A stretch of DNA of 35,063 bases from a bacterium. Lineage in GTDB: Bacteria > Hinthialibacterota > Hinthialibacteria > Hinthialibacterales > Hinthialibacteraceae. A program made the translations under genes and the position numbers. Where the stretch lies: contig CAXXSM010000074.1 in the NCBI GenBank assembly GCA_963663405.2, forward strand, positions 1 through 35,063, written 5' to 3'. The notes under the pieces are model-generated. The model ran no database searches, was not told the DNA's origin, and saw only the letters and a list, made by a program, of their open reading frames with translations. Below, piece after piece: positions 1-23,818 of this stretch; positions within the stretch are counted from its first letter, which is position 1, and every line of letters begins with the position of its first letter.

Positions 1-537
1 ATCATCAAGTTTCCCTTCGATCCCCAGAGGAAACATCGATTCGTGTATCTGTATCGATACAAACACATTATCGCGGACAAAGATCGATGTATACTGGCTG
101 CCCGTGATATGCCAAGAAACATAACCAGTATCATTCGGATTGACCGGATTAAGCAAAGGCACAGCCGCCATCATCACTCGCGTTGAAGCGATGATCGCTT
201 CCCGATGAGAAGGAAAAACACCAATGGTGAGCCGGATAAATCTCTGGTCTTCTTTGTTACGTTTCACCCGCCATTTCGATCCTAGACCTCGTTCACTCGC
301 TCCCCCTGATCGAAATTCGAACACATCATAATCCGGGATATAACGGGAAAAGACCGTATCGAGATCGATCCCCGTAATCAATAGACGGTCGGATTCAACA
401 ACAGGAACCTGATCAATCCAGGCTTTTATAGTCTCAATCGCTTCTTCCTCCGCATGAATCGGATTCGATATCGCGCAAAGGAAGAAGATCTCCGCGAACA
501 ATAGAAAACACATGAACTCTCTACATTTTGCAATCAT
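1..537 (-). CDS. Secreted protein of the tandem paralog array (subtype C), 3' end runs off the window
   Basis: Not in the ORF track. Manual translation from ATG at 537: MIAKCREFMCFLLFAEIFFLCAISNPIHAEEEAIETIKAWIDQVPVVESDRLLITGIDLD..., with later LTIGVFPSHREAI and NPVNPNDTGYVSW. Clearly paralogous to 2925..3890, with the same upstream AAGGATAC RBS region. Confidence 0.85.
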   Translation of the reverse strand, partial: MIAKCREFMCFLLFAEIFFLCAISNPIHAEEEAIETIKAWIDQVPVVESDRLLITGIDLDTVFSRYIPDYDVFEFRSGGASERGLGSKWRVKRNKEDQRFIRLTIGVFPSHREAIIASTRVMMAAVPLLNPVNPNDTGYVSWHITGSQYTSIFVRDNVFVSIQIHESMFPLGIEGKLDD

Positions 538-764
538 GGTATGTATCCTTGAATATTGAATGATAGAAGACGCCGTGTTGTGATGGTTTGCTTGAATGAT
601 TCAACGATCAAATAAGAGGAAAGTTTTACGGAACAAATAATTTGTGGATCATAGGGTAAGTGAATACATTCCAATATATGATTTCATTTTTTATATCATC
701 ATGGGTAGCAAGGGCAAGGTTTTTTTCTGCCCTTGCATAATTCCATAATATAAATGGAATATCA

Positions 765-1730
765 TTATTCTTCTTTAACATTGAAAAGTATATCTTTCTT
801 GATCCATAAATCAGATACGACACATATATCATTGACTGCCACTGCCTTCAGATCGAAAATTGTGAAACTGTATAGAGATAATTTTACAATCCCTGATGGT
901 TCCCATTCAACTGATGGTGTAGGAAATGGCTCATATCCTAATCCAGTCCAACGTTCGGGGTAATCATCAGCTTTCCTATATGTATCGGGGGATATTCGTG
1001 TATATATTTTTCTCAAGTTAGGATCGTAGACTGGTAATGACACATTTACTATTCCACCAGTCTCAAGGGAAAATTCTGAAGGAAAATCCTCTCCCTGAAT
1101 TATGGGAGGAATCGGTTTCCCTCCTTTGATAACCCATTCCGCGCCATCGATCAATCCCCGTTTTAGAGCATTCTGAATTCGTTTTGCATCCATTTCTTTT
1201 GATCCATCAAAACCAGCTAACACATTATCAATCACATATTTTCCTTCGTGCCAGAAGACGAATCCAGGATTTTCTTTTTCAATGGGCGCCACTGGAACGG
1301 GTATATTCACCATCGATAAAGATCGTACAGCGGCTAACAAAGCGTCGCGATGACTGCGAAAAATGCCTAGCGAGATTTTCCATCGCCTTTTGTAAAAAGG
1401 AAGTTTCCGCTTTTTCCCATAGCAAAACCGCGTTTCCGGATCGTTAGGATCAGGTTTGACACGGCCTCGAGCGACAATACCATTAAATCCACCTACAAGT
1501 TCATATTCAAAATCTTCCAAATCCGGGATGTATTCTTTTAAGAAAGATTCAATTTTCAGTCCAGTAATCAATGGCCGATTGGATTCCATAACGGGAATAT
1601 CAGAATTAAGATATCGCACAGTTTTAACATCATCCCCTTCTTGCGCGAATGATGTTAAAACCATAAAAAATGAGCAGGTGAAAAGACAGTATAAAATACA
1701 TAAGCGACGAAAGAGCATTCTCAAATCCAT
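765..1730 (-). CDS. Secreted protein of unknown function, array paralog (subtype B)
   Basis: 321 aa ORF; Sec-type signal ending SFA-QE; family motifs PVxESNRPLITG, VKPDPNDPETRF, GIFRSHRDALLAA, GAEWVIKG, AVAVND-C-VVSD; GAGGTGG RBS. Confidence 0.88.
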   Translation of the reverse strand: MDLRMLFRRLCILYCLFTCSFFMVLTSFAQEGDDVKTVRYLNSDIPVMESNRPLITGLKIESFLKEYIPDLEDFEYELVGGFNGIVARGRVKPDPNDPETRFCYGKKRKLPFYKRRWKISLGIFRSHRDALLAAVRSLSMVNIPVPVAPIEKENPGFVFWHEGKYVIDNVLAGFDGSKEMDAKRIQNALKRGLIDGAEWVIKGGKPIPPIIQGEDFPSEFSLETGGIVNVSLPVYDPNLRKIYTRISPDTYRKADDYPERWTGLGYEPFPTPSVEWEPSGIVKLSLYSFTIFDLKAVAVNDICVVSDLWIKKDILFNVKEE

Positions 1731-1776
1731 CAGTCCACCTCACAACAAAAGATTGTAAGTTTTTTTGGTAAGAACA

Positions 1777-1807
1777 GCGCCCAGCCTCCATCCAAGAGAC
1801 CGGGCGC
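1777..1807 (-). repeat. Conserved intergenic hairpin of the paralog array, copy 1
   Basis: Minus strand GCGCCCGGTCTC-TTGGATG-GAGGCTGGGCGC, 12-bp stem with G-U pairs, followed by TGTTCTT. Confidence 0.85.
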
Positions 1808-1856
1808 CGCTGTCAACCGGTCATTCGTGAACTTAGAGATTATATATGAAACACCT

Positions 1857-2840
1857 TTATTCTTCTGGAACGCTAATACGAATCTCCTTTTTAAACACAT
1901 CCGAAACCACACACAGATTGTTCACTGCGACTGTTTCCAGGTCAAAAGTCACAGCGCCATTTTGAGTTATTTGCACGATGTCAGGCGATTTCCATTTTAT
2001 TAATGGTTTTAGATGTATTGGAAATCTCTCTGTAAGTCCAGTACCAAAAACAGATGGTTCGTATTCCTTCTTATATCCTCTTAAATTTCGCGCATGAATA
2101 TTTCTATATACTTTTAATCCATTTGGTTCTATGATGTTCAATTCAGCTTCCACCTTCCGATCGATCCAAAGAGAAAATTCCGAAGGAAAATTCTCTCCCT
2201 GGATCTGCGGAGGAATCGGTTTATCTCCTTTAATTACCCATTCCGCGCCATGCAATAATCCTTGCTTAAGAGCAGTCCGGATTTCTTTTTTATCCAGAAT
2301 ATCTCCAGAACTGAAACCAGCAAAAACATTGTCAATTACCCATTTTCCCTCACCCCAAGAGACGAAACCGGGGTTGTCTTTGTCTAGTGGATTAACTTCT
2401 TTTAAAGCGCTTCTATTTTTATAATAACGTGAAGCGGCCAACAATGCGTCGCGATGACTTTTGTAAACACCAATCGAGATTCCCCATCGTCTTTTATAAA
2501 ATGGGAGATGGCGCTTACTTCCCCAAAAAAAACGTGTTTCTGGATCGTTTGGATCGGGCTTAACACGCCCATGAGCGACCAAACCGTAATAGCCACCAAC
2601 AAATTCATATTCAAAATCATCAAGATCTGGGACATATTTCTCTAAAAAGGATTCTATTCTTACTCCAGTAATAAGCTGCCGTTTGGATTCTACAACAGGA
2701 ACATCATACGTTTCTTGAAACCGGACGGTCTCAACCTCAATATCTTGGTCTTGTGCGGCTGATATTAAAACCATAAAAAATGAGAAAGTGAATAAGCAGG
2801 ATAATATACATAAGCGCCGAAAAAGCATTCTCAATTTCAT
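1857..2840 (-). CDS. Secreted protein of unknown function, array paralog (subtype A)
   Basis: 327 aa ORF; signal peptide ending SAA-QD; same family motifs; C-terminus KKEIRISVPEE. Confidence 0.88.
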   Translation of the reverse strand: MKLRMLFRRLCILSCLFTFSFFMVLISAAQDQDIEVETVRFQETYDVPVVESKRQLITGVRIESFLEKYVPDLDDFEYEFVGGYYGLVAHGRVKPDPNDPETRFFWGSKRHLPFYKRRWGISIGVYKSHRDALLAASRYYKNRSALKEVNPLDKDNPGFVSWGEGKWVIDNVFAGFSSGDILDKKEIRTALKQGLLHGAEWVIKGDKPIPPQIQGENFPSEFSLWIDRKVEAELNIIEPNGLKVYRNIHARNLRGYKKEYEPSVFGTGLTERFPIHLKPLIKWKSPDIVQITQNGAVTFDLETVAVNNLCVVSDVFKKEIRISVPEE

Positions 2841-2885
2841 CAGTCCACCTCACAACAAAAGATTGTAAGTTTGTTGGTAAAAACA

Positions 2886-2916
2886 GCGCCCAGCCTTCAT
2901 CCAAGAGACCGGGCGC
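2886..2916 (-). repeat. Conserved intergenic hairpin of the paralog array, copy 2
   Basis: GCGCCCGGTCTCTTGGATGAAGGCTGGGCGC followed by TGTTTTT. Confidence 0.85.
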
Positions 2917-2924
2917 CATCAAAA

Positions 2925-3890
2925 TTAATTTGATTCAGATTTCGGAACAGAGAAGGTTACGATCTTTTTCCACACCTCTGAAACAACACAACGATCGTTA
3001 ACAACGATCGCGCAAACCTCCGCAGCCCGGCTTACTTGACCGCGGTGTTTGATTTCAACGAGATCGGGCCGAATCCATGTTATTATGGGGACATTTGTCT
3101 CGTCGACGGGAATCGCCAGGGAACGATTGATATCATTAACCCAAACGTTACCAATTAATTCCCGTTTATCGGGATCGATGGCTCGCAGGGCTGCCGTAGT
3201 TTTTCCTTTAACCCAAAAAGAAACTTGATCGGTAAAATCACTTCCATCAATTATTGGCCGCACTACTGTTTTTCCTTTGAATATTCCTTCTGCGCCGTTT
3301 TTTAAGTCTCGATCGAGTTGCTTAGCCATCTCTTGGGGATTCAAGGATTCATCAATTTGAATTGCCACATAAACATTGTCTCGAATAAAACTAAACTGAT
3401 TTGGATTCATCGAATTCCAAGAGACAAATCCAGGATCGTCCGGATCAATTGGATTGAGTCTTGGAACTTCCTGTATGTCAGTTTCCGGTATAGCGATTAT
3501 GGCATCCCTATGTGAAGGGAAAACGCCAATAGTTAATCTAACAAATCTCTGATAGTAAGGTTCACTCCTTTTCTTCCCCCAAAAATATCTAGTTTCGGGA
3601 TCTTTAGGATCAGGTTTCACTCGCCATTTCCACACAATTCCATCTTCATAAGGACCCATTGGACTCCGCTCGAAAGCATCATAATCAGCTAGATAGCGGG
3701 AAAAGACTTTATCTAAATCTATCCCAGTAATCAGCGGACGGTTGGATTCAATAACCGGCACTTGATCTCTCCATACCTGAATGCGTTCAATGTCCTTTTC
3801 TTCTGAAATGACAGGATTCGATAATACACAAAAAAAGAATAGATACGCTAACAACAGAGTATATTGGGTCCTTCTTCCAGAATCAGCCAT
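2925..3890 (-). CDS. Secreted protein of unknown function, array paralog (divergent subtype C)
   Basis: 321 aa ORF; hydrophobic N-terminus; VPVIESNRPLITG, VKPDPKDPETRYF, IGVFPSHRDAI, VNDRCVVSEVW. Confidence 0.87.
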   Translation of the reverse strand: MADSGRRTQYTLLLAYLFFFCVLSNPVISEEKDIERIQVWRDQVPVIESNRPLITGIDLDKVFSRYLADYDAFERSPMGPYEDGIVWKWRVKPDPKDPETRYFWGKKRSEPYYQRFVRLTIGVFPSHRDAIIAIPETDIQEVPRLNPIDPDDPGFVSWNSMNPNQFSFIRDNVYVAIQIDESLNPQEMAKQLDRDLKNGAEGIFKGKTVVRPIIDGSDFTDQVSFWVKGKTTAALRAIDPDKRELIGNVWVNDINRSLAIPVDETNVPIITWIRPDLVEIKHRGQVSRAAEVCAIVVNDRCVVSEVWKKIVTFSVPKSESN

Positions 3891-4035
3891 AGTAAGTATC
3901 CTTGATTTTTTGTTTATAAGACGCCGAACTAGGGTACATGACCTTAATAATAAAACGATTTAGAAAAGAGATAGTTTTAATGAAACTCATTTTTGCGCCA
4001 TAGCCGCAAAGAAAAGATAGAGAATGAAGAAAAAC

Positions 4036-4068
4036 GGCGCCCAGCCCCCATCCAAGAAACCGGGCGCC
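4036..4068 (-). repeat. Conserved intergenic hairpin of the paralog array, copy 3 (most terminator-like)
   Basis: GGCGCCCGGTTTC-TTGGATG-GGGGCTGGGCGCC followed by GTTTTTCTT. Confidence 0.85.
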
Positions 4069-4119
4069 GCTGTCATTTACCGGTCATTCGTGAATTCGGA
4101 GAATATAAATGGAATGCCT

Positions 4120-5091
4120 TTACTCTTCTGGTACGTTGATTCGAATCTCCTTTTTAAACACATCCGAAACCACGCATAGATCGTTCACGGCGACCGCCTC
4201 TAAATCGAAAGTTACATTTCCTCGATGAATGATTTCTACAATACCAGACGGCTTCCATTTCAATATTGGCTCCAAATCAGTCGGATGTATCTCTGCAAGT
4301 AAACCCATGGGACCTGGTTCGTACTCTTTGTCATACCCTCGTAAATTAAGAGCGAAAAACCTTTTGAATATCTTTCTTTCATTTGGATCCATAACGGGTA
4401 AAGGAGCTTCCGCTTTCCGATCGATCCAAAGGGAAAATTCCGAGGGAAAATCCTCTCCCTGGATTTGGGGGGGAATCGGTTTTCCTCCTTTAATTACCCA
4501 TTCCGCGCCATGTAATAATCCCTGCTTGAGCTCATTCTGAATTGCTTTTTTGTTCGGTATTTCTCCCGAACTGAAACCTGCATAAACATTATCAATTACG
4601 CATCGGTCATCACCCCATGAAACAAAACCGGGATTCTCTTTGTCCAGCGGATCTGCCTCTACAGTGATATTCCAACCACTAAAATGCCGCAATGCAGCCA
4701 ATAAAGCTTCTCGATGACTGCGATAAACACCAATCGTTATTGCCCACCGTCTTATTGGAACATGAGGCTTTGATGAATCAAAAACGTAAGCCAGATTCCT
4801 GTTAGGTACTGGTTTGAGACGCCCACGAGCGCCCAAACCTTTGAAACCACCTACAAGTTTATATTCAAAATCTTCAAACTCGGGGATATATTTCTTCAAA
4901 AAAACTTCTATTTTCACCCCAGTAATCAGCGGCCTGTTGGATTCCACAACAGGAATTTCATACTCTTGAAACTGGACGGTTTCGTCCTCAACAATCCCAC
5001 CTTGCGCGAATGATGTTATAATTATAAGAAATACGCCAATAAAAAAGCAGGATAAAACACATAAGTAATGGAAGAACATTCTAAATTTCAT
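4120..5091 (-). CDS. Secreted protein of unknown function, array paralog (subtype A)
   Basis: Start placed at ATG 5091 (MKFRMFF) by alignment with paralogs and the conserved RBS; signal ending SFA-QG; family motifs present. Confidence 0.87.
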   Translation of the reverse strand: MKFRMFFHYLCVLSCFFIGVFLIIITSFAQGGIVEDETVQFQEYEIPVVESNRPLITGVKIEVFLKKYIPEFEDFEYKLVGGFKGLGARGRLKPVPNRNLAYVFDSSKPHVPIRRWAITIGVYRSHREALLAALRHFSGWNITVEADPLDKENPGFVSWGDDRCVIDNVYAGFSSGEIPNKKAIQNELKQGLLHGAEWVIKGGKPIPPQIQGEDFPSEFSLWIDRKAEAPLPVMDPNERKIFKRFFALNLRGYDKEYEPGPMGLLAEIHPTDLEPILKWKPSGIVEIIHRGNVTFDLEAVAVNDLCVVSDVFKKEIRINVPEE

Positions 5092-5135
5092 CAGTCCACT
5101 CCCCAACAAAAGATTGTAAGTCTTTTGGTAAGAAC

Positions 5136-5168
5136 GGCGCCCAGTCTCGATCCAAGAGACAGGGCGCC
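5136..5168 (-). repeat. Conserved intergenic hairpin of the paralog array, copy 4
   Basis: GGCGCCCTGTCTC-TTGGATC-GAGACTGGGCGCC followed by GTTCTT. Confidence 0.85.
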
Positions 5169-5205
5169 GCTGTCATTTACCGGCCATTCGTAAATTTAGT
5201 TAATA

Positions 5206-6183
5206 TCATGGATTCGCCTGTTTTGTTAGAACGTAACATTGAACATCTTTCTTTATCCATAAATCAGATACGACACATAAATCATTGACCGCCACTGCTT
5301 TCAGATCGAAAACCGTAAATTCTTTCAGATGTAATTGTACGTCTCCTGACGGCCCCCATTCAACAATGGGCGCCGAAAAAGCTTCAATTCCATCATCTGT
5401 AAAACGTTCAGGATACTCTTTCTCTTTCCCAAATGTAAATGGGGAAATACGTCTATAAAATTTTCGTAAATTTGGATCATATACTTGTAAGGTGGCAGCT
5501 GCAATTCCACTGGTCTGAAGAGTGAATTTCGCAGGAAAATCCTCCCCATGAATTATGGGAGGAATCGGTTTCCCTCCTTTAATAACCCATTCCGCGCCAT
5601 CGATCAACTCCCGTTTAAGAGCATTCTGTATTCGTTTTGCATCCATTTCTTTTGATCCTTCAAAACCAGCTAACACATTATCAATTACATATTTTCCTTC
5701 ATGCCAAAAGACGAATCCAGGATTTTCTTTTTCAAGGGGCGCCACTGGAACGGGCATATTCACCATCGATAAGGATCGTACAGCGGCTAATAAAGCGTCG
5801 CGATGACTGCGAAAAATACCTAGCGAGATTTTCCATCGTCTTTTGTAAAAAGGAAGTTTCCGCTTTTTCCCATAGCAAAACCGCGTTTCCGGATCGTTAG
5901 GATCGGGTTTGACACGGCCTCGAGCGACAATACCATTAAATCCACCAACCAGTTCATATTCAAAATCTTCTAAATCTGGGATGTATTCTTTTAAGAAGGA
6001 TTCAATTTTCAGTCCAGTAATCAATGGCCGGTTGGATTCTACAACGGGAATATCAAAATTTAGATACCGCACAGTTTCAACATCATCCTGCTCCTGCGCA
6101 AATGATGTTAAGACCATAAAAAATGAACAAGTAAATAAGCAGAATAAAACACATAAGTAATGAAAGAACATTCTCAAATTCAT
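5206..6183 (-). CDS. Secreted protein of unknown function, array paralog (subtype B)
   Basis: Start placed at ATG 6183 (MNLRMFF) after a GGGGGGTGG RBS; mature N-terminal two-thirds nearly identical to 765..1730. Confidence 0.87.
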   Translation of the reverse strand: MNLRMFFHYLCVLFCLFTCSFFMVLTSFAQEQDDVETVRYLNFDIPVVESNRPLITGLKIESFLKEYIPDLEDFEYELVGGFNGIVARGRVKPDPNDPETRFCYGKKRKLPFYKRRWKISLGIFRSHRDALLAAVRSLSMVNMPVPVAPLEKENPGFVFWHEGKYVIDNVLAGFEGSKEMDAKRIQNALKRELIDGAEWVIKGGKPIPPIIHGEDFPAKFTLQTSGIAAATLQVYDPNLRKFYRRISPFTFGKEKEYPERFTDDGIEAFSAPIVEWGPSGDVQLHLKEFTVFDLKAVAVNDLCVVSDLWIKKDVQCYVLTKQANP

Positions 6184-6227
6184 CGGTCCACCCCCCAATA
6201 AAAGATTGTAAGTTTGTTGGTAAGAAC

Positions 6228-6260
6228 GGCGCCCAGCCTCCATCCAAGAAACCGGGCGCC
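6228..6260 (-). repeat. Conserved intergenic hairpin of the paralog array, copy 5
   Basis: GGCGCCCGGTTTC-TTGGATG-GAGGCTGGGCGCC; stem extended by flanking AAC/GTT. Confidence 0.85.
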
Positions 6261-6308
6261 GTTTGTGTTTCCCGGTCATTGTTGTTTTTATGAAGTTTGC
6301 TCGATAAC

Positions 6309-7319
6309 TTATTCTTCCGGAATAGAAATATGAATCTCCTTTTTCCACACGTCCGAAACCACGCATAGATCGTTCACTGCGACCGCTTCCAGATCGAAAG
6401 TCAAAGGGCCACCACTATGAGTAATTTCCACAACGCCTGATTGTTGCCATTTGATTGTTGGCATTGAATAAATCGGAATCTCCTTCAGTCCTCCAAGAAA
6501 TAAAGCAGGATTGTACTTTTTCTTGTATCCTCTTTTATTACGAGGCTGAATTCTTTGAAATATTTTTCGTTCATTCGGTTCAACAATGGTTAATTGAGTT
6601 TTCGCCATTTGATCGACCCAAAACGAAAATTCTGAAGGAAAATCCTCCCCTTGGATTTGGGGAGAAACCGGTTTGTCGCCTTTAATAACCCATTCAGCGC
6701 CATCGAATAATCCCTGCTTGAGAGCGGTTATAATTTCTACAGTATTCATTGAATTCGAAGCGCTAAAACATGCAAAAACATTGTCAATCACAAAATCGGT
6801 TCCACTCCATGAATCAATCGCAAAATCTTTCCCACTCCATGAAACAAAACCGGGATTCTCTTTTTCCATAGGATCAGTGTTAATGATAACACTCCAATCA
6901 CTATAATATCGCGAAGCGGCGACCAATGCGTCACGATGACTTTGATAGACGCCAATGGCTATTCTCCACTGTCTTTTATAAAAAGGAAGATTACGCTTTT
7001 TCCCCCAAAAGAACCGGGTTTCTGGATCGTTTGGATCGGGTTTGACACGGCCAGTGGCGCCTATACCTCTGAAACCGCCTGTTAATGTATACTCAAAATC
7101 ATCATACTCCGGAATGTGCTGTATCAAGAATAATTCAATTTTTACTCCGGCGATCAAAGGCCGCTCTGATTCTATGACTGGAATGTCATACACATGTTGA
7201 AACCGGACAGATTGACTAACATCCTCCTCCTGCGCGAATGAGGACAAAACAAAAAATAATACACCATATAATAAAAAAGATAACTTTGATAACCATATTG
7301 AAAGTTTATTATTATTCAT
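6309..7319 (-). CDS. Secreted protein of unknown function, first array paralog (subtype A)
   Basis: 336 aa ORF; AGGAGA RBS; signal ending SFA-QE; family motifs; short internal duplication SWSGKDFAID/SWSGTDFVID. Confidence 0.88.
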   Translation of the reverse strand: MNNNKLSIWLSKLSFLLYGVLFFVLSSFAQEEDVSQSVRFQHVYDIPVIESERPLIAGVKIELFLIQHIPEYDDFEYTLTGGFRGIGATGRVKPDPNDPETRFFWGKKRNLPFYKRQWRIAIGVYQSHRDALVAASRYYSDWSVIINTDPMEKENPGFVSWSGKDFAIDSWSGTDFVIDNVFACFSASNSMNTVEIITALKQGLFDGAEWVIKGDKPVSPQIQGEDFPSEFSFWVDQMAKTQLTIVEPNERKIFQRIQPRNKRGYKKKYNPALFLGGLKEIPIYSMPTIKWQQSGVVEITHSGGPLTFDLEAVAVNDLCVVSDVWKKEIHISIPEE

Positions 7320-7396
7320 TTTAGATCTCCTATATAGGACATTTTTAAAATTTTATTATCATCTTATCCACTTCTACATAATCATAACAATACATA

Positions 7397-8572
7397 TTAT
7401 CTTTCACCTTCATTCAATGTACAATTTTCTAAATTTAGAACTTGTGGAATATCATGCATTATATGCTCAAAGTAATAGTTATAAGTTTTCAAATCTACCA
7501 ATATTCCTGGCGATGTCCATCCATCATTGTCATTATCATTTCCATCAAGCAGTAAAGATGAATCGGCTGCATAATAAGTACTATTTTGAAACAAATAATC
7601 AGCTTCATGATATAGAAAACATGTCCTCGCACCTTCAATCCAACCCGCTAATTTCACAGGCCTAGTAATAATTGGATCATCTGGAAAAGTAATTCTTGAA
7701 AATGACATTATCTTTGCTTCATCAATTCCAACTGCCCTGCATAACGTGTTATAGAAACACGCAAAATCCCTACAATCATTACCTTCTTGTGGACCTTCTT
7801 GATATTCATAGTTACAATCACTGATAAACTCACGAATATAAAAACTATCAACCATACCAGGATAAGTATAATGTTTTCCAGGATGATATTTCAAAAATGA
7901 ATACAATGCTGGTACTAGCTGTTCCATGGCAAAGCTTTTATTAGTCGCCCCTTCCATCCCCGCTGTTGCATATCTTAAAACTTCCACATAGACCGGAGTC
8001 GATCCCCACGGCTCTTTTGGGTAATCTAATAATAAAAAACATGTTGTGAAAGTAGAACCAGCATATAGCCAAGGACCATCATAGATTTTATATTCCCAAT
8101 CGAAGTACATTTCTACTTCATCAATTGCCATTCCGGACATTACTCCAGCAACATCATAAGTATATCCATACACTATTTTTTCTGTTTCGTTTAACAGAAG
8201 GTTACCAGAAGTTTCTATTATCAAACCATTATTACCTACTCCTCTAAAATAGACTGGTGTCGAACTACTATCCCACGGGAAACTTAATTCAAATTTCAAT
8301 GTCATCGGTATTGAATGATCAACTGGTATATAAATAGGATCATCCTCACCGGCAAGAGTCCAATGAGGCGGGGTGATCAACTCATCTTCCTCACCCCATT
8401 TTAAATTTAAATACGAGCTATATTGATCTTGATAGCTAACCTCAACAATCGTTAACGTCGGATCCTGGGCAAAACCAACCCCCGCCATCACCCCCATAAT
8501 ACCACAAACAATTCCAATTCGTTTAGAAATTTTGCATAATTTTGATAACACACATCTTTTGTAATCATTCAT
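7397..8572 (-). CDS. Secreted protein with putative transglutaminase-like (papain-fold) catalytic domain
   Basis: 391 aa; AAGGAG RBS; signal ending GFA-QD; GNDCRDFACFYNTLCRAVGI resembles the transglutaminase-like GxCxDxA...lcRaxGi motif, followed by YHEA (His) and YAADSS (Asp); visibly AT-rich. Confidence 0.65.
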   Translation of the reverse strand: MNDYKRCVLSKLCKISKRIGIVCGIMGVMAGVGFAQDPTLTIVEVSYQDQYSSYLNLKWGEEDELITPPHWTLAGEDDPIYIPVDHSIPMTLKFELSFPWDSSSTPVYFRGVGNNGLIIETSGNLLLNETEKIVYGYTYDVAGVMSGMAIDEVEMYFDWEYKIYDGPWLYAGSTFTTCFLLLDYPKEPWGSTPVYVEVLRYATAGMEGATNKSFAMEQLVPALYSFLKYHPGKHYTYPGMVDSFYIREFISDCNYEYQEGPQEGNDCRDFACFYNTLCRAVGIDEAKIMSFSRITFPDDPIITRPVKLAGWIEGARTCFLYHEADYLFQNSTYYAADSSLLLDGNDNDNDGWTSPGILVDLKTYNYYFEHIMHDIPQVLNLENCTLNEGER

Positions 8573-8910
8573 TGGATTCTACTCCTTTTTTTGTTTTGAT
8601 ACATTACTAAGATCGCGTCAATCAGATTCTGAAAATTTACTCTTTGTAATAATGCATTCGTTTTATAGTTCCATATAAATCCTACTTTACTTAAAGAATA
8701 TAACACATTCATAACAGACTATATATTACACAAAAGAACATATACAGCCGTACATTTCATAATATATCACATAAATCCAAATAGATCAACTAAAAATACT
8801 AAATATTTAATAATTAAAAGTTAGAATAACACAATTGGTTGGATAATTTGTTGAGTTGAGTGACTGAAAAATAAGGATTTAGGTAGGATCGAAAATCTTC
8901 AAAAAAACGC

Positions 8911-10185
8911 TCATTTTCCCTGCGCTTTTTCAATTTTCGCTTTGCATTCTAAATAAATCTGCCCCCGCAATCCATGTCCCTTCTCCCCCGGACGCACCCA
9001 GAAGGGGCAGAGTTGTTCGCAGAAATCGAAGCCGTCATAAAAATTGAACGCGGATCGTGGGCCTTCTTCCCGCTGCGTGATCCCGAACGTAAGGCTGTAC
9101 GCGCCTTCCAAAAGATTCAGGTTTTCGATCTGGAACGAGGCGGTCCCACGCCCTTCGATCAATTCTATATCACCGAACGTAACATCAGTCGCAGCAGTAT
9201 AGATCGGCTCTCCCTCATCCGAGACAATCGACATACCGAAGATCGGATAATCAATCGGCTGTTTCGCGGCCCATTCAAACTCGATACGGACCGGCTCACC
9301 CGTTTCGTAGATGTACCGCTCCGCGCCTGCGCCGTCGAACATCCGGACGCGGGTAAATCGGATTTCAAACGTCCCAAACCGGTTGCGTTTCACAATCTCG
9401 GCGGAAAGCGCTTCCCCCCGGCGGCGCGCTTCTTCAAATTGATGCTGTTTATACAGCCCGATCATTTCATACGGATGCCCATCTCCAATGACCTTCCCCC
9501 GGTGAAGAACAACCGCCCTACTGCACAATGTCAAGATCGCATCCAGGTCGTGAGTGACTACAATTATAGTTTTACCGGAATTGCGAAGGTACCGAATATG
9601 GTCCTTACACTTGCGTTGAAACCGCTGATCGCCGACCGCAAGGATCTCATCCACCAAAAGAATACCCGGCTGCACGTGGACGCCGATGGCGAAACCAAGA
9701 CGCAAAAACATGCCGGATGAATAATGCTTCACCGGTGAATCGATAAATTCCTCCAATTCGCTGAACGCGATAATCTCCGGCATCCGGCGTGTCAGTTCGC
9801 TTTTAGAGATCCCCAACAGCGCCCCGGATAGGTAGACATTTTCCCGCCCGGTCATATCCGGATGAAATCCGACGCCCACCTCCAAAAGACTCGACACAGT
9901 TCCATTGACTTCAATAGTGCCTGATGTAGGCGAGGTAATCCCCGCGATTAATTTAAGAAGCGTGCTCTTCCCGGAACCATTGTCACCGATTAAGCCCACG
10001 ATCTCACCGGAAAAAATGGTCAGATCGATCTCCTTAAGCGCTTCGATATGGTTCACAGCGAGTTTACCGCGTCCACCGCGAAGGATCTTCTCCTTCCAGG
10101 TCGACGCCTTTTCCGCCGAGAGCGTGAAAGTCTTGCTCAAGCCCCTGCATGCGATCGCCGTATGTAATTTTCGTTCGTTTTGCAT
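8911..10185 (-). CDS. wzt: Polysaccharide ABC exporter ATP-binding protein with C-terminal carbohydrate-binding (Wzt_C-like) domain
   Basis: Walker A GDNGSGKST, YSSGM signature, LLVDEILAVGD Walker B, and a beta-rich C-terminal extension typical of Wzt/RfbB. Confidence 0.88.
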   Translation of the reverse strand: MQNERKLHTAIACRGLSKTFTLSAEKASTWKEKILRGGRGKLAVNHIEALKEIDLTIFSGEIVGLIGDNGSGKSTLLKLIAGITSPTSGTIEVNGTVSSLLEVGVGFHPDMTGRENVYLSGALLGISKSELTRRMPEIIAFSELEEFIDSPVKHYSSGMFLRLGFAIGVHVQPGILLVDEILAVGDQRFQRKCKDHIRYLRNSGKTIIVVTHDLDAILTLCSRAVVLHRGKVIGDGHPYEMIGLYKQHQFEEARRRGEALSAEIVKRNRFGTFEIRFTRVRMFDGAGAERYIYETGEPVRIEFEWAAKQPIDYPIFGMSIVSDEGEPIYTAATDVTFGDIELIEGRGTASFQIENLNLLEGAYSLTFGITQREEGPRSAFNFYDGFDFCEQLCPFWVRPGEKGHGLRGQIYLECKAKIEKAQGK

Positions 10186-10197
10186 GGATATATGTAT

Positions 10198-11682
10198 TTA
10201 TTCGTTCCCCTTCGCGCACCGATGCCTAGCCTCATGTATCCGATCCCATACCTTGATCCGCCAGCGTTCAATTGAATTGTATTCACGCTTCAAGGCGTGG
10301 ATATGGTTACAAACTTCCTTAGGATTGGGCGCGCCGATATGCTCGCGGGATTCAACGCAGGATGATGGATCATTAAGGCGGTCAAACTCATCTTGTTTGA
10401 GCGGTTCTACATTCTTATCCCGCAGAAGCTGATTCAAATCCTCAAAATCAAAACAACCTTCCTTCGCCATACCCACCGCGTCCGAGAGAATATGATAGGT
10501 CTCGCGGAAAGGAAGCCCCCGCGAACGAGCCAAATGATCAGCGAGATCGACCGCGTTGAGAAATCCACTGCGCGAAGCGGCCTCCATCCGGTCCGTGTGT
10601 ACCACCAATCCACGAACCACATCCGCGAGAAGAACCGCCGCTCCAGCTCCTTCCCGCGCGGCGTCCATGAAGAGATACTTGGTCCACTGCGCGTCTTTGT
10701 TATAGCCCGATAGGTTGCAGGCGTCGATCGAGAGGAGCGCCTGCGCGTAGCCGTGGATGGAATGGAATTTCCCCTTAATCGCTTCCGCAAAATCAGGATT
10801 GCGCTTCTGGGGCATGATCGAACTGCCCGTCGTGAAGTCCGCAGGCAGGCTGAGATACCCAAATTCTTCGGTGGAAAAAAGAATCAAATCTTGAGATAGA
10901 TTCGACAACCGTTTCAAGAGCATAAGGATCGCATGCGCGATCTCCGCCTCCGCCTCCCCCCGCGAGGAGACCGCGTCGAGTGTATTGACCTGAACCCCGT
11001 CAAACGCAAGCAGTTCAGCAGTCAATTTACGATCCAGCGGCCAAGTCGTTCCATAAGACGCCGCCGCTCCGAGTGGGCAGGTGTTAACGAGCGCGTAGAG
11101 ATCCTTCAACCGCCCTGCGTCACGCAGCAATCCCTGCGCGTACGAAAGAAGCCAATGCCCCCACGTCGTCAACGTGGCTTTTCGATGGTGAGTATACCCC
11201 GGCATGACAGCCGCCGCATATTCACGCGCGCTGGAAAGCAAAGAAGCGCCCAAGGCTTCAATCTCTTCAACAAACCGCAGAATCACTTCCCGCGCGAAGA
11301 GTTTCATGTCCGTAGCGGCTTGATCGTTGCGGCTGCGTCCACTATGCAGACGACCGCCGATTTCTCCCCCGCAGCGTTCGCTGACGTATGACTCGATATT
11401 AATATGAACGTCTTCCAATTGGGGATCGAGCGTCCATGAGCCGGTCTTCCATTCGCGCTCCAAACGGTTCAACGCTTGGAGGACCTTCTTTAATTGACCG
11501 GTGGAGTATACGCCAATCCCACGCAGCGCGATCGCATGCGCTTGATTCGTCCAAAGATCGTAGGGCACAAGAAGCGAATCCGCCTCAACCAAAGGGACGA
11601 CATCCCGCCCGGCGGCGAATGCGACGAACGCCTCCCGCGCCGAACCTTTAGCGTCACTATGCCAGATGGGTTTCTTCACCAT
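10198..11682 (-). CDS. argH: Argininosuccinate lyase
   Basis: EDVHINIE, LHSGRSRNDQ, MPGYTH and the TGSSIMPQKRNPD fumarase/ASL signature. Confidence 0.93.
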   Translation of the reverse strand: MVKKPIWHSDAKGSAREAFVAFAAGRDVVPLVEADSLLVPYDLWTNQAHAIALRGIGVYSTGQLKKVLQALNRLEREWKTGSWTLDPQLEDVHINIESYVSERCGGEIGGRLHSGRSRNDQAATDMKLFAREVILRFVEEIEALGASLLSSAREYAAAVMPGYTHHRKATLTTWGHWLLSYAQGLLRDAGRLKDLYALVNTCPLGAAASYGTTWPLDRKLTAELLAFDGVQVNTLDAVSSRGEAEAEIAHAILMLLKRLSNLSQDLILFSTEEFGYLSLPADFTTGSSIMPQKRNPDFAEAIKGKFHSIHGYAQALLSIDACNLSGYNKDAQWTKYLFMDAAREGAGAAVLLADVVRGLVVHTDRMEAASRSGFLNAVDLADHLARSRGLPFRETYHILSDAVGMAKEGCFDFEDLNQLLRDKNVEPLKQDEFDRLNDPSSCVESREHIGAPNPKEVCNHIHALKREYNSIERWRIKVWDRIHEARHRCAKGNE

Positions 11683-11749
11683 AATTCCACCTCATTTGCA
11701 ATAGTGGAATTATACATGGGCGATTGAATGGAGAAAGCGGTTTAACAAA

Positions 11750-12865
11750 TTACCAAAGCATTAATTGCCGATCGGGCGTAGAAGATGAATCAGCGGATTC
11801 GGACTCATCCTCAAAACCAGCCGCTCGCACCCCCAACAAGCGGACAGCTCGATTCGTCAAATCGATCTCCTTGAGCAAATTGATCGCGATTTCAGCGATC
11901 TCTTTACTTACATTCACAGGATGATCCAAAGTTAATGCGCGGGTAGCCACTGTAAAATCTTCGAACCGGACCTTAATCCCAATGGTCCGTCCTTCCAATC
12001 CCAATTTATCCAACTGCGCAGCCACCTCCCCCGCGAGATAGCGCAGGAACTCATGCATTTTCGCAGAGTCCTTCAGATCGTGTGAAAATGTATGTTCCTT
12101 GGATAGCGATTTCCGTTTTCGCTCAACAATAACGGGATTGGGATCCACGCCACGCGCGAGTTCATGGAGCCGGGAGCCATGTTTGTTACCCAACGCTTGT
12201 TGAAGCGATTCAAGCGAATAGGATCGCAGTTCCCCCACGGTTCGTATCCCCATCGCGGTCAGACGTTCTTCCGTTTTCGAGCCAACACCGGGAATGATCC
12301 GCGTGGGCTGCGGCGTAAGAAACGCTTCAGCCTCTTGGGGATGGATCACAAAAAAACCATCCGGCTTGTCATAATCAGACGCGATTTTCGCGAGGAATTT
12401 ATTCGGTCCAATACCTACAGATGCCGTTAATTGCGTCTCCCGCTTAATCTCCGCTTTCAACCGCCGCCCCAACGATTCCGCTTCAGAGAACGCGCTTATA
12501 CTGGCGCTGACATCAAGATAGGCTTCATCCAGCGAGACAGGCTCTATGAGCGGCGTCAACCCCAGAAACTGTTTACGGATCTGTAAAGATACAGTTTTAT
12601 ACGCTTGAAAGTGGCAATCACGGCGAATCGCCTGGGGACAGAGACGAAGCGCCCGGATCATCGGCATGGCGGAACGGATACCGAATTTCCGCGCTTCATA
12701 CGAAGCCGCCGTCACAACGCCTCGATCGGCGGGACTGCCCCCGACCACGACTGGTTTCCCCCGCAGTTCGGGATGATCGCGCTGCTCGACGGACGCGAAA
12801 AACGCGTCCATGTCCACATGAATAATCGTACGTCCGATGGCCGGATCACCTCCCGGCGGTTCCAA
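11750..12865 (-). CDS. dinB: DNA polymerase IV (Y family)
   Basis: IIHVDMDAFFASVE, ASYEARKFGI, SLDEAYLD, KFLAKIASDYDKPDG; exact start uncertain. Confidence 0.95.
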   Translation of the reverse strand: MEPPGGDPAIGRTIIHVDMDAFFASVEQRDHPELRGKPVVVGGSPADRGVVTAASYEARKFGIRSAMPMIRALRLCPQAIRRDCHFQAYKTVSLQIRKQFLGLTPLIEPVSLDEAYLDVSASISAFSEAESLGRRLKAEIKRETQLTASVGIGPNKFLAKIASDYDKPDGFFVIHPQEAEAFLTPQPTRIIPGVGSKTEERLTAMGIRTVGELRSYSLESLQQALGNKHGSRLHELARGVDPNPVIVERKRKSLSKEHTFSHDLKDSAKMHEFLRYLAGEVAAQLDKLGLEGRTIGIKVRFEDFTVATRALTLDHPVNVSKEIAEIAINLLKEIDLTNRAVRLLGVRAAGFEDESESADSSSTPDRQLMLW

Positions 12866-12900
12866 TCATTTGAAACAAATAGAATAAATCGGCGGGCGTT

Positions 12901-13419
12901 TCAAGAATCGTAAACGGTAAGCGTATGAATGGGATGGGATTTCAGTTTCTCCCGTCCGCTCAAAAACGCCAATTCGACAACGAAAGAAACGCCTACAACC
13001 TGACAGGAGAAGTTTTTCAAAAGATTCAATGTCGCTTCCACCGTTCCACCCGTCGCAAGGAGATCGTCAACGATAACGACCGTTTCCCCCGCCGCAACGG
13101 CGTCTTTATGGATCTCAATCGTATCCTGCCCATATTCCAATTCATACGTGTGAGAATACGTGTCCGCTGGAAGTTTGTTAGGCTTACGGACGACAGCCAG
13201 TCCGGCGTTCAGTTTTAAAGCGAGGGGCGCGCCATAGATAAATCCACGAGACTCGATCGCGACGATTTTATCAATTTTCTTCCCTTCATACGGCGCGGCC
13301 ATAGAATCAATGGTCCATCGGAAAGCGTCTATATCCTGAACGATGGGTGTGATATCAATAAAATTGATTCCCGGTTTGGGAAAATCGGGAATGGTTCGCA
13401 GAATCGTTTTTAAATCCAT
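12901..13419 (-). CDS. apt: Adenine phosphoribosyltransferase
   Basis: IPDFPKPGINFIDIT, ESRGF, YELEYG and the PRPP motif VVIVDDLLATGGT. Confidence 0.96.
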   Translation of the reverse strand: MDLKTILRTIPDFPKPGINFIDITPIVQDIDAFRWTIDSMAAPYEGKKIDKIVAIESRGFIYGAPLALKLNAGLAVVRKPNKLPADTYSHTYELEYGQDTIEIHKDAVAAGETVVIVDDLLATGGTVEATLNLLKNFSCQVVGVSFVVELAFLSGREKLKSHPIHTLTVYDS

Positions 13420-13595
13420 TGAGTTCTCCTCACAAAATATAAATACAAATAGTCTTGATCGAATTCTTGCATAATTACAAAGAGGTAAATCAGAATAACA
13501 CTCTAAAAGAGGCGATGAAACCTGTCAAGATTGAACTTCCTTGCGTTCTTTTTCTTGACAGATGACGCAGCAGGCGATATCGTCCTCTGAGACCT

Positions 13596-15035
13596 ATGGA
13601 ACGCACAACTCTTCAACCCATATCCTCATCCCGGAACCGGATGGAATTCCTTCTCGGTTTCCTGGGATCTATTTTTTTAATATTAATCGCTCTTTTTATC
13701 CAATCACCGTTTCTTCTTTTTGGACTCGCCTTTGGAATCGCTGGAGCCGTTGTTTTTTGGTATTGGTACGAATACACGCCGATGGCGTTGATTCTTCTTC
13801 TTGCGTTTTCGGTGGAAATCCAAGTCACTGGGGCCACACGGCTGACCGTTCCGACCGAACCTTTTATTGTCTTGCTGTTTCTAATGGCGAGCGCCCAGCT
13901 CTATCGAAGGCCCAAAATTCATTATCACAGCTCGCCGCAGAATCGCGCGGTGATCTTCCTCTATCTTATCATGGTTTTAAGCTTGGTGATCTCCCAATCT
14001 CAGGTTAGCACAATCAAAGCGTTTATCCGCGATACAGGCTACATTGTGGCCGCCTATTATCTGATACCGCGATACATCGATTCGGAAAAACGCTTGAAAC
14101 AACTTGTCATTGGTTGTCTGATCGCGCATTCATTATTAACGCTCTATGGATTCGGCACACAAGCGGTGATGGGGATCCGAATCTATTCAAGAATCGCCAA
14201 TCCTTTTTTTATTGAGCACTGTATCTACGCCGCGTTTCTGGTCATCACATTCTCGTTTGTTCTCGCCTACTATTTAGATCTGTCATCAGGCCCTGTCAGG
14301 AACGCGTTGGGGATTATCACAGCGGTAATCGGCTGCGCGATTGTATTGACATTCGTGCGAGCGGCGTGGTTCAGTGTCGTCGTCCTACTGATTTATTATT
14401 TAACCCAGTTTCACAAACGCAAATCCGCCGTCGATTTGATTATAATTTTACTAATGTTTCTCATTGCCGGTCTTATCCTTTTGCTCACAACCGATCTCGG
14501 CACAATGTTTCTACAGCGCTTCGATACACTCACCGATCTTCATTACGTCGCCAATTACGATCGGCTCGATCGATGGATCGCCGCTTGGGAAATGTGGAAA
14601 GACAATCCGATTCTTGGCGTTGGCTGGGGCGCCTATCCCGACCTGTATCCGGACTACTCTCTTCTTCCCGGCGCCTATTCGAGCCAAATCCGCATGGGCG
14701 CGCATAATCTGTACTTGGAATTGATGGCGGAAACGGGGATCGTTGGAATTTCAGTCTTCTTCTATTTAATTTATACGTATTTCTACCAATCTGTTTTAAT
14801 TAAGAGACGCGCGCGCTCCTCTTTTTATCGTGTTTTCCTGATCGGTATGCAAGGCGCGATGATCACATACCTTATCCACGCCTTTTTAAACAACCTCGGC
14901 CCCTCCGATAAAATGGGTATCACATTCTGGTTTTTATTAGGAATGGTTCCAACAATGCGCTTTCTTGTCGATGAAGAAATCGAATCCCAACCAGTAGACG
15001 AATATTCCGAATCCCTCCAAGAAACCAACGAATAA
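13596..15035 (+). CDS. O-antigen ligase / Wzy_C family polytopic membrane protein
   Basis: Many hydrophobic segments; TFVRAAW, R...W...W.DNPILGVGWG and AHNLYLELMAETGIVG motifs. Confidence 0.85.
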   Translation: MERTTLQPISSSRNRMEFLLGFLGSIFLILIALFIQSPFLLFGLAFGIAGAVVFWYWYEYTPMALILLLAFSVEIQVTGATRLTVPTEPFIVLLFLMASAQLYRRPKIHYHSSPQNRAVIFLYLIMVLSLVISQSQVSTIKAFIRDTGYIVAAYYLIPRYIDSEKRLKQLVIGCLIAHSLLTLYGFGTQAVMGIRIYSRIANPFFIEHCIYAAFLVITFSFVLAYYLDLSSGPVRNALGIITAVIGCAIVLTFVRAAWFSVVVLLIYYLTQFHKRKSAVDLIIILLMFLIAGLILLLTTDLGTMFLQRFDTLTDLHYVANYDRLDRWIAAWEMWKDNPILGVGWGAYPDLYPDYSLLPGAYSSQIRMGAHNLYLELMAETGIVGISVFFYLIYTYFYQSVLIKRRARSSFYRVFLIGMQGAMITYLIHAFLNNLGPSDKMGITFWFLLGMVPTMRFLVDEEIESQPVDEYSESLQETNE

Positions 15036-15290
15036 ATCTACATCGAACGAGTCTTCAATAAAACAACATAAAAAAAGCAAAATCAAAGGTTTATACGAAT
15101 TCTATTAATCAAAACCTATGCTAGTCGGATTCGTCTATCATCGTGTTTCCAACCACTTCTTAACCACGGCTCAGCGAACTCATATCACAATTCAAACGCC
15201 GCAAATCCTACAGGACCATCCTTTTTAACGAAATATTAATTTTATCCTATTTTCGTAAACTTTTCCTCTATCCCGCCCGTATTATATAAC

Positions 15291-15372
15291 GAGAGATTTC
15301 CTAACCTACCGGGTAATGGTCTATCCATTACCTCCTCACCTTCCCCCGGTCCTCCCCGGGGGACTTTTTTTT
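15291..15372 (+). ncRNA. Candidate small RNA (two hairpins, CCUCC motifs, intrinsic terminator)
   Basis: Perfect hairpin GGTAATGG-TCTAT-CCATTACC (15312-15332), linker TCCTCACCT, then a terminator hairpin; AT-rich -10-like TATTATATAAC at 15280-15290. 5' end is an estimate. Confidence 0.45.
15342..15372 (+). terminator. Rho-independent terminator
   Basis: TCCCCCGG-TCCTCC-CCGGGGGA followed by C and T8. Confidence 0.85.
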
Positions 15373-15388
15373 ATTCATATAGAAAAAA

Positions 15389-18604: not shown

Positions 18605-19210
18605 TTGAACTCAGAAGTGAAAACCATCGCAGTTTATGGAAGTTCGGGCATCTCCCAGGAATCTGAATCCGCCCAGCGCGCCTGCCGGCTTGGTCGGTTA
18701 TTGGCGGAGAATGGATTCCGGATTTGTAACGGGGGCTATACAGGAGTGATGGAAGCCTGCAGCCGGGGGGCGCGTGAAGCGGGCGGTCATGTGACGGGTG
18801 TATGCTGCGACACGTTTATTACACGTTCACCGAATCCCTATTTAACTGAAATCATTCAAACTCCCGATCTGTTGGAACGAATCACTACCCTAATGCGCCT
18901 CTCCGACGCCTATATTGTGTTAGACGGCAACATCGGCACACTGGCGGAATTATTTCTGGCGTGGAATTTAATCGCCATCGGCTGGACGCGACCACTCATA
19001 GTCGTCGGCGACGATATGCGAAACGCGCTGAAAGCGCTTGAACCCTATACGGAAATAGAAGAAAAGAAGATGCGCCACATCACATTCGCGCCCACCGCCG
19101 AGGAAGCGGTTCACTATCTTCGAAAATATTTTAATGGGACACACCCAATAATCCCCCACATGTTTTACCGGATCAGTAGCAGGACTAGTCAAAGATATCA
19201 TTCATCGTGA
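18605..19210 (+). CDS. LOG family (Rossmann-fold, lysine-decarboxylase-like) protein
   Basis: IAVYGSS, NGGYTGVMEACSRGA, ER..LMRLSDAYIVLDGNIGTLAEL. Confidence 0.85.
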   Translation: MNSEVKTIAVYGSSGISQESESAQRACRLGRLLAENGFRICNGGYTGVMEACSRGAREAGGHVTGVCCDTFITRSPNPYLTEIIQTPDLLERITTLMRLSDAYIVLDGNIGTLAELFLAWNLIAIGWTRPLIVVGDDMRNALKALEPYTEIEEKKMRHITFAPTAEEAVHYLRKYFNGTHPIIPHMFYRISSRTSQRYHSS

Positions 19211-19745: not shown

Positions 19746-19789
19746 GTGGATTCCCCCACTCCTTCGATCCGTCAATGATTTGCTTCTCT

Positions 19790-19800
19790 ATTATATCACA
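19790..19800 (-). promoter_or_regulatory. Extended -10 promoter TGTGATATAAT upstream of Uma2 copy 1 (repeated at 20432, 21074, 21717, 22362)
   Basis: Exact match to TRTGnTATAAT about 45 nt upstream of each ATG. Confidence 0.65.
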
Positions 19801-19826
19801 TCATAAGAATTGGATATACAAGAACA

Positions 19827-23809: not shown

Positions 23810-23818
23810 CTCAATATC

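Follow-up and report, generated by a model that had tools for sequence, protein, structure and literature searches.

A Putative Exported Cys-His-Asp Enzyme and Its Tandem Partner Genes Form a Two-Gene Module Restricted to the Hinthialibacterota

Introduction

Amidase and lipase effectors of type VI secretion systems (T6SS) are paired with periplasmic immunity proteins, as in Tae/Tai (Tae3-Tai3 being one such pair) and Tle/Tli. LapG and the BTLCP family (Peptidase C93) are periplasmic transglutaminase-like cysteine proteases, and LapG processes an adhesin. Chagasin, the staphostatins and AprI/Inh are inhibitors of peptidases, and such inhibitors may be encoded within the operon of their target protease. 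To these can be added the IPI protein of Bacillus subtilis, an immunoglobulin (Ig)-fold peptidase inhibitor (PMC3901451), and Cpi1 of Pseudomonas, a membrane-anchored chagasin-like inhibitor (bioRxiv 10.64898/2026.06.02.729523). Polyimmunity loci, as described by Zhang et al. 2012 (PMC3482391), are built from tandem, co-oriented, closely spaced paralogous immunity genes. Here we describe a locus with features of several of these systems. It lies on a 35,063-nucleotide (nt) stretch, hereafter the window, which is the whole of contig C74 of G000, an 8.4-Mb, 82% complete metagenome-assembled genome of the phylum Hinthialibacterota. In it a gene for a candidate Cys-His-Asp enzyme heads a co-oriented array of at least seven paralogous genes, and members of this partner family accompany the enzyme wherever in the phylum its surroundings could be assessed.

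Results and Discussion

Linkage of the Enzyme and Its Partner across the Phylum

Among 35 species genomes of the phylum, 7 have the enzyme and 9 the partner family, and each of the 7 with the enzyme has a partner gene immediately following it in the same orientation. The linked pairs, given as genome and contig, are those of G000 (the window), G025:C9, G023:C109, G004:C16, G017:C186, G026:C8 (with two partners) and G003:C3; the evidence beyond G000 comes from 8 other genomes, all metagenome-assembled and some of them close kin. The first-pass annotation of the window, a model's reading made from the letters and their open reading frames (ORFs), had seen enzyme and paralogs together at this one locus, and the pairing proves to recur elsewhere. 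In the six other genomes the two genes either overlap or stand up to about 83 nt apart, and in G000 77 nt separate them; partner copies number 1–2 per locus elsewhere and at least 7 in the window. An eighth enzyme fragment lies on a contig (G023:C207) too short to be judged for a partner, and no enzyme gene without a partner was seen on any assessable contig. When about 185,000 species genomes were scanned for the GNDCRDF-type pattern of the enzyme, only five loci came back, all of them among the known linked pairs.

Clustering of ORFs at 12 loci from the 8 other genomes together with the window showed that no genes but those of the module are shared across genera. Neighbors at these loci are a varied set of housekeeping genes, among them ClpX, CarD, TctC, acyl-CoA dehydrogenase, glycosidases and GDSL esterases; flanking genes are shared only within one genus (3 loci), and the guanine-plus-cytosine (GC) content of the module is lower than that of the flanks at 12 of the 13 loci. 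More distant members of the enzyme superfamily in the phylum lie on contigs, or at positions, that show no partner match nearby, which indicates that the pairing is specific to the close enzyme family. The enzyme and its partner are a phylum-restricted two-gene module, and their linkage is the main new result of this analysis; we found no description of the pair in the literature outside subscription journals.

Partner genes also occur by themselves. No enzyme match exists anywhere in two of the nine partner-bearing genomes, G009 (85% complete) and G024 (90% complete). Enzyme-less partner loci were recognized by inspection of their neighborhoods at G009:C397, G024:C737, G026:C45, G023:C146, G003:C1 (two in tandem) and G003:C8, and by the absence of an enzyme match on the contig at G025:C131, G023:C56, G025:C299 and G017:C152. 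At G026:C8 the reading frame of the enzyme is broken and two intact partner genes follow; the same break recurs in a metagenome contig 99.98% identical to this one, which may not be an independent case.

Organization of the Array

In the window the module occupies the minus strand, where the ORF listing gives the 391-residue enzyme gene, then six complete paralogs of 321–336 residues (P1 to P6) and a truncated seventh (P7). In the order of transcription the features are as follows.

8573 to 8910, minus strand: AT-rich spacer of 338 nt ahead of the enzyme gene, where the low-GC island meets a Wzt-type ABC ATPase gene; it holds a single promoter-like site at 8789 to 8761, by consensus match only
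7397 to 8572, minus strand: enzyme gene, 391 residues, with GNDCRDFA, LYHEAD and AADSS motifs
Enzyme residues: signal or anchor, 1 to 36; Ig-like beta-sandwich, about 40 to 181; C-terminal putative catalytic domain with Cys267 (in GNDCRDF), His322 and Asp337
6309 to 7319, minus strand: P1, subtype A, 336 residues, 77 nt downstream of the enzyme gene
5206 to 6183, minus strand: P2, subtype B, 325 residues from the homologous ATG
4120 to 5091, minus strand: P3, subtype A, 323 residues, with an alternative TTG start at 5109
2925 to 3890, minus strand: P4, subtype C, 321 residues, grouping with copies of other genomes (G017 enzyme-adjacent, G009)
1857 to 2840, minus strand: P5, subtype A, 327 residues, the copy that was modeled
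P5 residues: alpha/beta domain, 35 to 205; Ig-like domain, 208 to 327; hypervariable insert, 251 to 280; hairpin with Cys310, 301 to 327
765 to 1730, minus strand: P6, subtype B, 321 residues, 83% identical to P2 and mosaic
1 to 537, minus strand: P7, subtype C, first 179 residues only, truncated by the contig end

A longer ORF for P2, reaching 6366, overlaps P1 and probably does not mark the real start. P1 contains an in-frame 30-nt tandem duplication (6784–6843, minus strand; copies 87% identical) that doubles the segment ahead of a conserved V-I-D-N motif. The paralogy of the seven genes is far beyond chance (E 1e-14 to 1e-129), and the 7 matches to the family in the 8.4-Mb assembly are all on the window contig. 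Identities within subtypes are 56–62% for A (P1, P3, P5), 83% for B (P2, P6) and 54% for C (P4, P7). Subtype C shares 30–37% with the other paralogs, and A and B share 52–58%, about the same as the A copies among themselves, so that the A/B boundary is soft. Spacers between paralogs measure 84–229 nt. The GC content is 35–41% over positions 1–9000, an AT-rich island, vs. about 53% in the next 4 kb, a flank made up of the Wzt-type ABC ATPase, argininosuccinate lyase and DinB genes.

The ORF listing, the identity matrix and the base composition therefore bear out what the first-pass annotation had read from this region, namely a co-oriented cluster of the enzyme gene (7397–8572) and at least seven paralogs, the order A-B-A-C-A-B-C, and the AT-richness of the enzyme gene. 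Its statement that the array continues off the window holds in that P7 is cut by the contig end; no sequence bridging that end was found in the sequencing runs checked, and further copies may lie beyond P7. Low-depth contigs of one sequencing run cover 4468–8988 without differences. The enzyme and all paralogs begin with 1–6 Lys/Arg followed by an uncharged hydrophobic stretch of 13–30 residues, and such an N-terminus on every protein points to Sec export. These N-termini fit Sec signal peptides or N-terminal membrane anchors; the signal peptides first assigned to all of the proteins are supported to the extent that the basic and hydrophobic character is universal, cleaved peptide and anchor both being compatible with it.

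A Putative Divergent Thiol Enzyme with an Invariant Triad

Cys267, His322 and Asp337, the candidate triad singled out in the first reading, are invariant in 60 aligned relatives and in 7 close homologs. In the 60-member alignment, which has a mean column identity of 18%, the only other invariant positions are Gly282 and Tyr366. Pfam gave a sub-threshold match to Transglut_core (PF01841) over residues 264–284 only (13.7 bits vs. a cut-off of 23, E 0.08) and no other family at E up to 1; NCBIfam, PADLOC and PHROGs contained no match to the enzyme. A word-based search of 5.8 billion proteins recovered the query itself only, and a HMMER search with a profile of 7 homologs recovered 690 cluster representatives at E ≤ 0.001, 113 at E ≤ 1e-10 and 12 at E ≤ 1e-30. 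In the 50 of 150 listed representatives that were scanned with Pfam, the shared domain had no family model except for one weak Transglut_core match (E 0.0048), and several of these proteins carry Laminin_G_3, PKD, fn3, TPR or beta-helix modules ahead of it. Transglut_core matched 2 of the 60 family members at E ≤ 1 (best 1.1e-4). Comparison by hhalign with 8 genuine Transglut_core domains from the same genome aligned GNDCRDFACFYNTLCRAVGI of the enzyme with the Cys-helix signature of Transglut_core, a weak match (probability 13.6%, E 0.002, 89 columns). A language-model search ranked unnamed clusters highest (0.95), with Transglut_core clusters at 0.82–0.84, and sequence-profile searches of the PDB with the enzyme alignments were empty or irrelevant.

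An AlphaFold model of the enzyme from a shallow 7-row alignment was poor (predicted local distance difference test, pLDDT, 48, and about 30 over residues 224–391). It contains an N-terminal beta-sandwich at residues 40–181 and a helix that starts directly after Cys267, the rest of the catalytic domain being unresolved, and a fold search with the sandwich returned generic Ig-like matches, none with Z ≥ 8. Because the triad is invariant and the Transglut_core signals, weak as they are, fall consistently on the Cys helix, we infer that the enzyme belongs to the transglutaminase/papain-like thiol enzymes as a very divergent branch, with an observed triad and a presumed fold. The superfamily to which it belongs is a large, unnamed, mostly extracellular collection of Cys-His-Asp domains spread over several phyla, and the close enzyme family (the 12 representatives at E ≤ 1e-30) is the tip of this uncharacterized group (the 690 at E ≤ 0.001).

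A Two-Domain Partner with a Hypervariable Insert

The partner family, which the first-pass annotation did not recognize, matched no characterized family in Pfam (Imm families included), NCBIfam, PADLOC or PHROGs. It is rare: among 5.8 billion proteins, 2 relatives outside the window were found with a single query and 5 with a 20-row profile, and a metagenome scan with the partner alignment yielded 6 loci, all near-copies of genomes already found. Viral contigs contained no relatives of either the enzyme or the partner family. A model of P5 from the 20-row alignment was confident (pLDDT 87.5; predicted template-modeling score, pTM, 0.80) and consists of an N-terminal hydrophobic helix, an alpha/beta domain at about 35–205 and an Ig-like sandwich at 208–327. 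Structural matches to the Ig-like domain reached Z 7.3–9.7, with Foldseek E down to 8e-5; the best were SraP (Z 9.7), Sap S-layer (Z 9.0) and intimin D00 (Z 8.9), and cadherins were also among them, in a fold so common that a match does not prove function. The best match to the alpha/beta domain, the PknH sensor domain (4esq; Z 7.8, root-mean-square deviation 4.1 Å, 118 residues aligned), is within the range expected without a true relationship, and on the predicted model this domain appears to have no clear structural match. An Atlas search with the N-terminal domain gave unnamed clusters and one DUF7956 cluster at 0.90.

Conserved positions of the first domain in 20 partners include Ser128-His129, Pro157-Gly158, Trp162 and Asp170-Asn171, and the last hairpin of the Ig-like domain carries the motif A-V-A-V-N-D-x-C-V-V-S-D...K-K. 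Within the Ig-like domain, residues 251–280 form a hypervariable insert (top-residue frequency 0.22, 27% gaps); beside it lies the most conserved segment, residues 301–327 (0.63).

Fast and Correlated Divergence

Measured by tblastn, the enzyme is 35–36% identical to its copies in G004 and G017, which belong to the same taxonomic family, and 34–37% identical to those of another family. The corresponding identities within and across families are 64–67% and 47–49% for ArgH, and 63–64% and 52–55% for Fmt. The enzyme and the partner diverge much faster than these housekeeping genes, and they do so together: the identity matrices of the enzyme and its adjacent partner correlate with r = 0.89 over 21 pairs, a value reached by 1 of 5000 permutations in a Mantel test and to which shared ancestry contributes. 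Maximum-likelihood analysis of 21 partner sequences unites the A and B copies in a G000-specific clade (support 100/100) and places P4 away from its array mates, with the enzyme-adjacent copy of G017 and the copy of G009 (95/94). The grouping of P4 with the G017 partner is what would be expected of an immunity gene aimed at the enzyme of a relative. P2 and P6 are nearly identical in the alpha/beta domain (proportion of nonsynonymous differences, pN, 0–0.03; of synonymous differences, pS, 0.09–0.20) and diverged in the Ig-like domain (pN 0.17–0.33, pS 0.55–0.72), a mosaic that indicates gene conversion or domain exchange.

Spacer Hairpins and Growth of the Array

Five of the six inter-paralog spacers contain the same 33-nt GC-rich hairpin.

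6228 to 6260, minus strand: array hairpin, P1-P2 spacer
5136 to 5168, minus strand: array hairpin, P2-P3 spacer
4036 to 4068, minus strand: array hairpin, P3-P4 spacer, the sole copy followed by a T-run (terminator-like)
2885 to 2917, minus strand: array hairpin, P4-P5 spacer
1776 to 1808, minus strand: array hairpin, P5-P6 spacer

The hairpin folds strongly (z −3.2 to −5.4) and is absent elsewhere in the G000 genome. Positions 1–9200, the hairpin included, gave no Rfam match; a known RNA or a dispersed repeat was rejected as its identity, since it is confined to the array. These hairpins may serve as partial terminators or as stems that stabilize the mRNA. The leaders of P2, P3, P5 and P6 can be aligned as far as a GAGGTG-like ribosome-binding site; another leader is common to P4 and P7. 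The shared hairpins and leaders together imply that the duplicated unit comprised hairpin, leader and gene. Phase-variation machinery was considered and rejected, as positions 1–9200 contain no inverted repeats and promoter-like sites are no commoner there than in shuffles (30 vs. 25.8).

The hairpin in the P6-P7 spacer (708–736, minus strand) is of another kind, a dispersed genome-wide element with 34 copies at ≤3 mismatches in G000 (reversed control, 0). Its stem variants alter both arms jointly (GGGCAG/CTGCCC to GGGGAG/CTCCCC) around a conserved A-rich loop, and many short contigs of other sequencing runs touch this element.

Comparison with Described Systems

The module resembles the peptidase toxins of polymorphic toxin systems (Tox-TGase, papain-like) in its thiol enzyme with a Cys-His-Asp triad, general Sec export and closely spaced, diverged paralogs downstream, and it resembles polyimmunity loci in having a copy number that differs from genome to genome and partner copies that lack an accompanying toxin gene. 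The polyimmunity layout itself is found in the window, with its at least 7 tandem copies and spacers of 84–229 nt, the other genomes having 1–2 copies per locus. Unlike polymorphic toxins, however, the enzyme is a free-standing protein of 391 residues rather than the tip carried at the C terminus of a long toxin of RHS or filamentous type, and there are no toxin cassettes; unlike known polyimmunity genes, the partner falls in no Pfam Imm family, and an immunity function is suggested by gene context.

The first-pass annotation had invoked the Tae/Tai and Tle/Tli pairs, and the likeness extends to an enzyme gene with one or more exported partner genes downstream and to a plausible papain-like chemistry. 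Its Sec-type N-terminus sets the enzyme apart from T6SS effectors. T6SS genes are absent from the surroundings of all 13 loci, and TssC/VipB is present in 1 of the 35 phylum genomes (G000, on another contig), 6 of the 7 module-bearing genomes being without a match. Taken as membership in these effector families, the analogy fails on the N-terminus and on this near-absence of TssC/VipB. The G000 match consists of two TssC/VipB (T6SS sheath) genes at G000:C57:57732-61355, which point to recent acquisition or a mis-binned contig because G000 is the sole match among the 35 genomes.

With LapG and BTLCP the enzyme shares the properties of an exported bacterial protein with Cys-His-Asp in transglutaminase-like order, presumably acting in the envelope. 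It differs from LapG in giving no BTLCP match at E up to 1, in its extra N-terminal Ig-like domain, in having as partner a different kind of protein, and in the lack of LapD-like, type I secretion system (T1SS) or RTX adhesin genes nearby. The partner, in turn, is like the Ig-fold peptidase inhibitors in having an Ig-like beta-sandwich, conserved loops at one end of it and perhaps a membrane anchor, and in being encoded beside a candidate target peptidase; it is unlike them in that it has no sequence match to inhibitor families and possesses an additional alpha/beta domain of 170 residues.

Interpretation of the Pair

The linkage, the enzyme-less partners, the excess of partner copies, the co-divergence, the variable insert beside a conserved loop, and export together give the module the look of a toxin or protease with its immunity protein or inhibitor. 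The explanation we favor, tentatively and at somewhat less than even confidence, pairs the enzyme with a cognate inhibitor or immunity protein whose gene has been multiplied into a poly-immunity-like bank. On this explanation, the first gene would encode a Sec-exported protein composed of an Ig-like sandwich and a divergent transglutaminase/papain-like Cys-His-Asp domain, most likely a thiol hydrolase that attacks a peptide or isopeptide bond outside the cytoplasm. The second would encode an exported or membrane-anchored two-domain protein that binds and blocks the enzyme and, as cognate inhibitor or immunity protein, shields the producer's own envelope. In G000 the partner gene would have been expanded, via tandem duplication of gene-plus-leader units and recombination, to at least 7 diverged copies, and the resulting poly-immunity-like bank might also cover enzyme variants made by relatives, if the module does have a role in antagonism. 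A more specific form of this proposal, about which we are doubtful, is a new effector/immunity pair independent of any dedicated secretion system, in which a Sec-exported transglutaminase-like toxin attacks the envelope and is opposed by a novel class of two-domain, Ig-bearing, possibly anchored immunity proteins whose specificity insert is shuffled by recombination, the at least 7 genes forming a heritable bank that protects against relatives' variants.

Several points weigh against the explanation by inhibition or immunity. The toxin with a bank of immunity variants proposed at the first pass agrees with the layout, the enzyme-less partners and the joint divergence, but binding, inhibition and toxicity are conjectural; a complex prediction for the enzyme (36–391) with P1 (31–336) scored 0.01 vs. 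a mark of 0.32, which is evidence neither way. The model, with its pLDDT of about 30 over residues 224–391, does not confirm the catalytic fold of the enzyme. With about 290 mature residues in two domains, the partner exceeds most immunity proteins in size; by sequence it matches no known immunity or inhibitor family, and its conserved Ser128, His129, Trp162, Asp170 and Asn171 could reflect an activity or ligand of its own. Whole-gene dN/dS among the paralogs is 0.19–0.33, so that positive selection is not demonstrated. The broken enzyme is a lone example, common to two near-identical assemblies, and the G000 assembly carries frameshift-type errors; independent genomes are few, 8 besides G000 and several of them close kin. 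Finally, an enzyme and its substrate would be just as likely to show linkage and correlated divergence.

This last point leads to the rival that survives best, which we consider unlikely though it deserves serious attention, and which the first-pass annotation had named as its second option: the partners would be proteins of the envelope or surface that carry a variable Ig-like domain and are trimmed, released or cross-linked by the enzyme, in the manner of LapG and its adhesin, and the array a set of surface variants. The best Ig-like matches (SraP, Sap S-layer, intimin D00) are surface proteins, but at Z 8–10 such matches are generic. The long hydrophobic N-termini could be anchors, yet the partners have no C-terminal sorting signal, and T1SS, LapD and adhesin genes are missing from the neighborhood. 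The conserved C-terminal hairpin with its invariant Cys and its Lys-Lys pair, a variable insert on a conserved scaffold and recombination between copies would all suit processed or cross-linked surface proteins; on the other hand, the partner alignment contains no conserved Gln as a transglutaminase donor. It would be odd for obligate substrates to persist without the enzyme, as the partners do in two of the nine genomes and at several loci elsewhere.

A looser association, which we judge improbable, would have a secreted degradative enzyme co-expressed with proteins that bind polymers or nutrients, the two never interacting directly. Fusions of distant enzyme relatives to Laminin_G_3, PKD, fn3 and beta-helix modules, which are typical of extracellular degradative and binding proteins, agree with this idea, as do the glycoside hydrolases and esterases among the neighbors at some loci. 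Strict pairing, however, is confined to the close enzyme family, neighbors are not conserved, and the enzyme and partner co-diverge tightly.

A partner that serves as a membrane-anchored periplasmic foldase or escort for maturation or export of the enzyme, much as lipase-specific foldases are encoded downstream of their lipase, is very improbable, for although the partner gene is directly downstream and co-oriented, its product has a hydrophobic N-terminal segment of 18–30 residues that could be an anchor, and no enzyme was found without a partner, one enzyme has no need of 7 diverged helpers, enzyme-less partner copies are common, and the partner is not helical, unlike known lipase foldases.

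Neither gene family has a curated family or a described member, and the strict pairing offers a handle on the enzyme superfamily in the form of a natural binding partner or substrate. Were the partner an inhibitor or immunity protein, it would represent a new inhibitor architecture and an antagonism independent of secretion systems in a lineage known only from metagenomes; were it a substrate, the pair would constitute a new maturation system for envelope proteins.

Other Genes on the Contig

Cell-surface polysaccharide genes adjoin the AT-rich island at 8911–16951, a region with the following features.

8911 to 10185: Wzt-type ABC ATPase gene with a Wzt_C domain
13596 to 15035: Wzy_C O-antigen ligase-like gene
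15389 to 16951: ORF of 520 residues with no family and a strongly skewed A/T composition

A second paralog array on the contig, likewise in a lower-GC stretch, consists of six tandem, co-oriented Uma2 genes (19185–22965, minus strand; 188–197 residues) that match the putative restriction endonuclease family PF05685 with E 1e-25 to 1e-30. Two adjacent paralogs of 737 and 739 residues with FG-GAP repeats (PF13517) occupy another lower-GC stretch at 28331–32797 on the plus strand. Within 23247–24806 (plus strand), a PfkB-family kinase is split into overlapping ORFs (23819–24268 and 24261–24806) and the ORF for a KDPG aldolase covers part of its family model only, both probably owing to single-base assembly errors. 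A PIN-domain gene (25181–25678) lies close to a DUF433 gene (25942–26232) on the plus strand, and the two possibly form a toxin-antitoxin pair.

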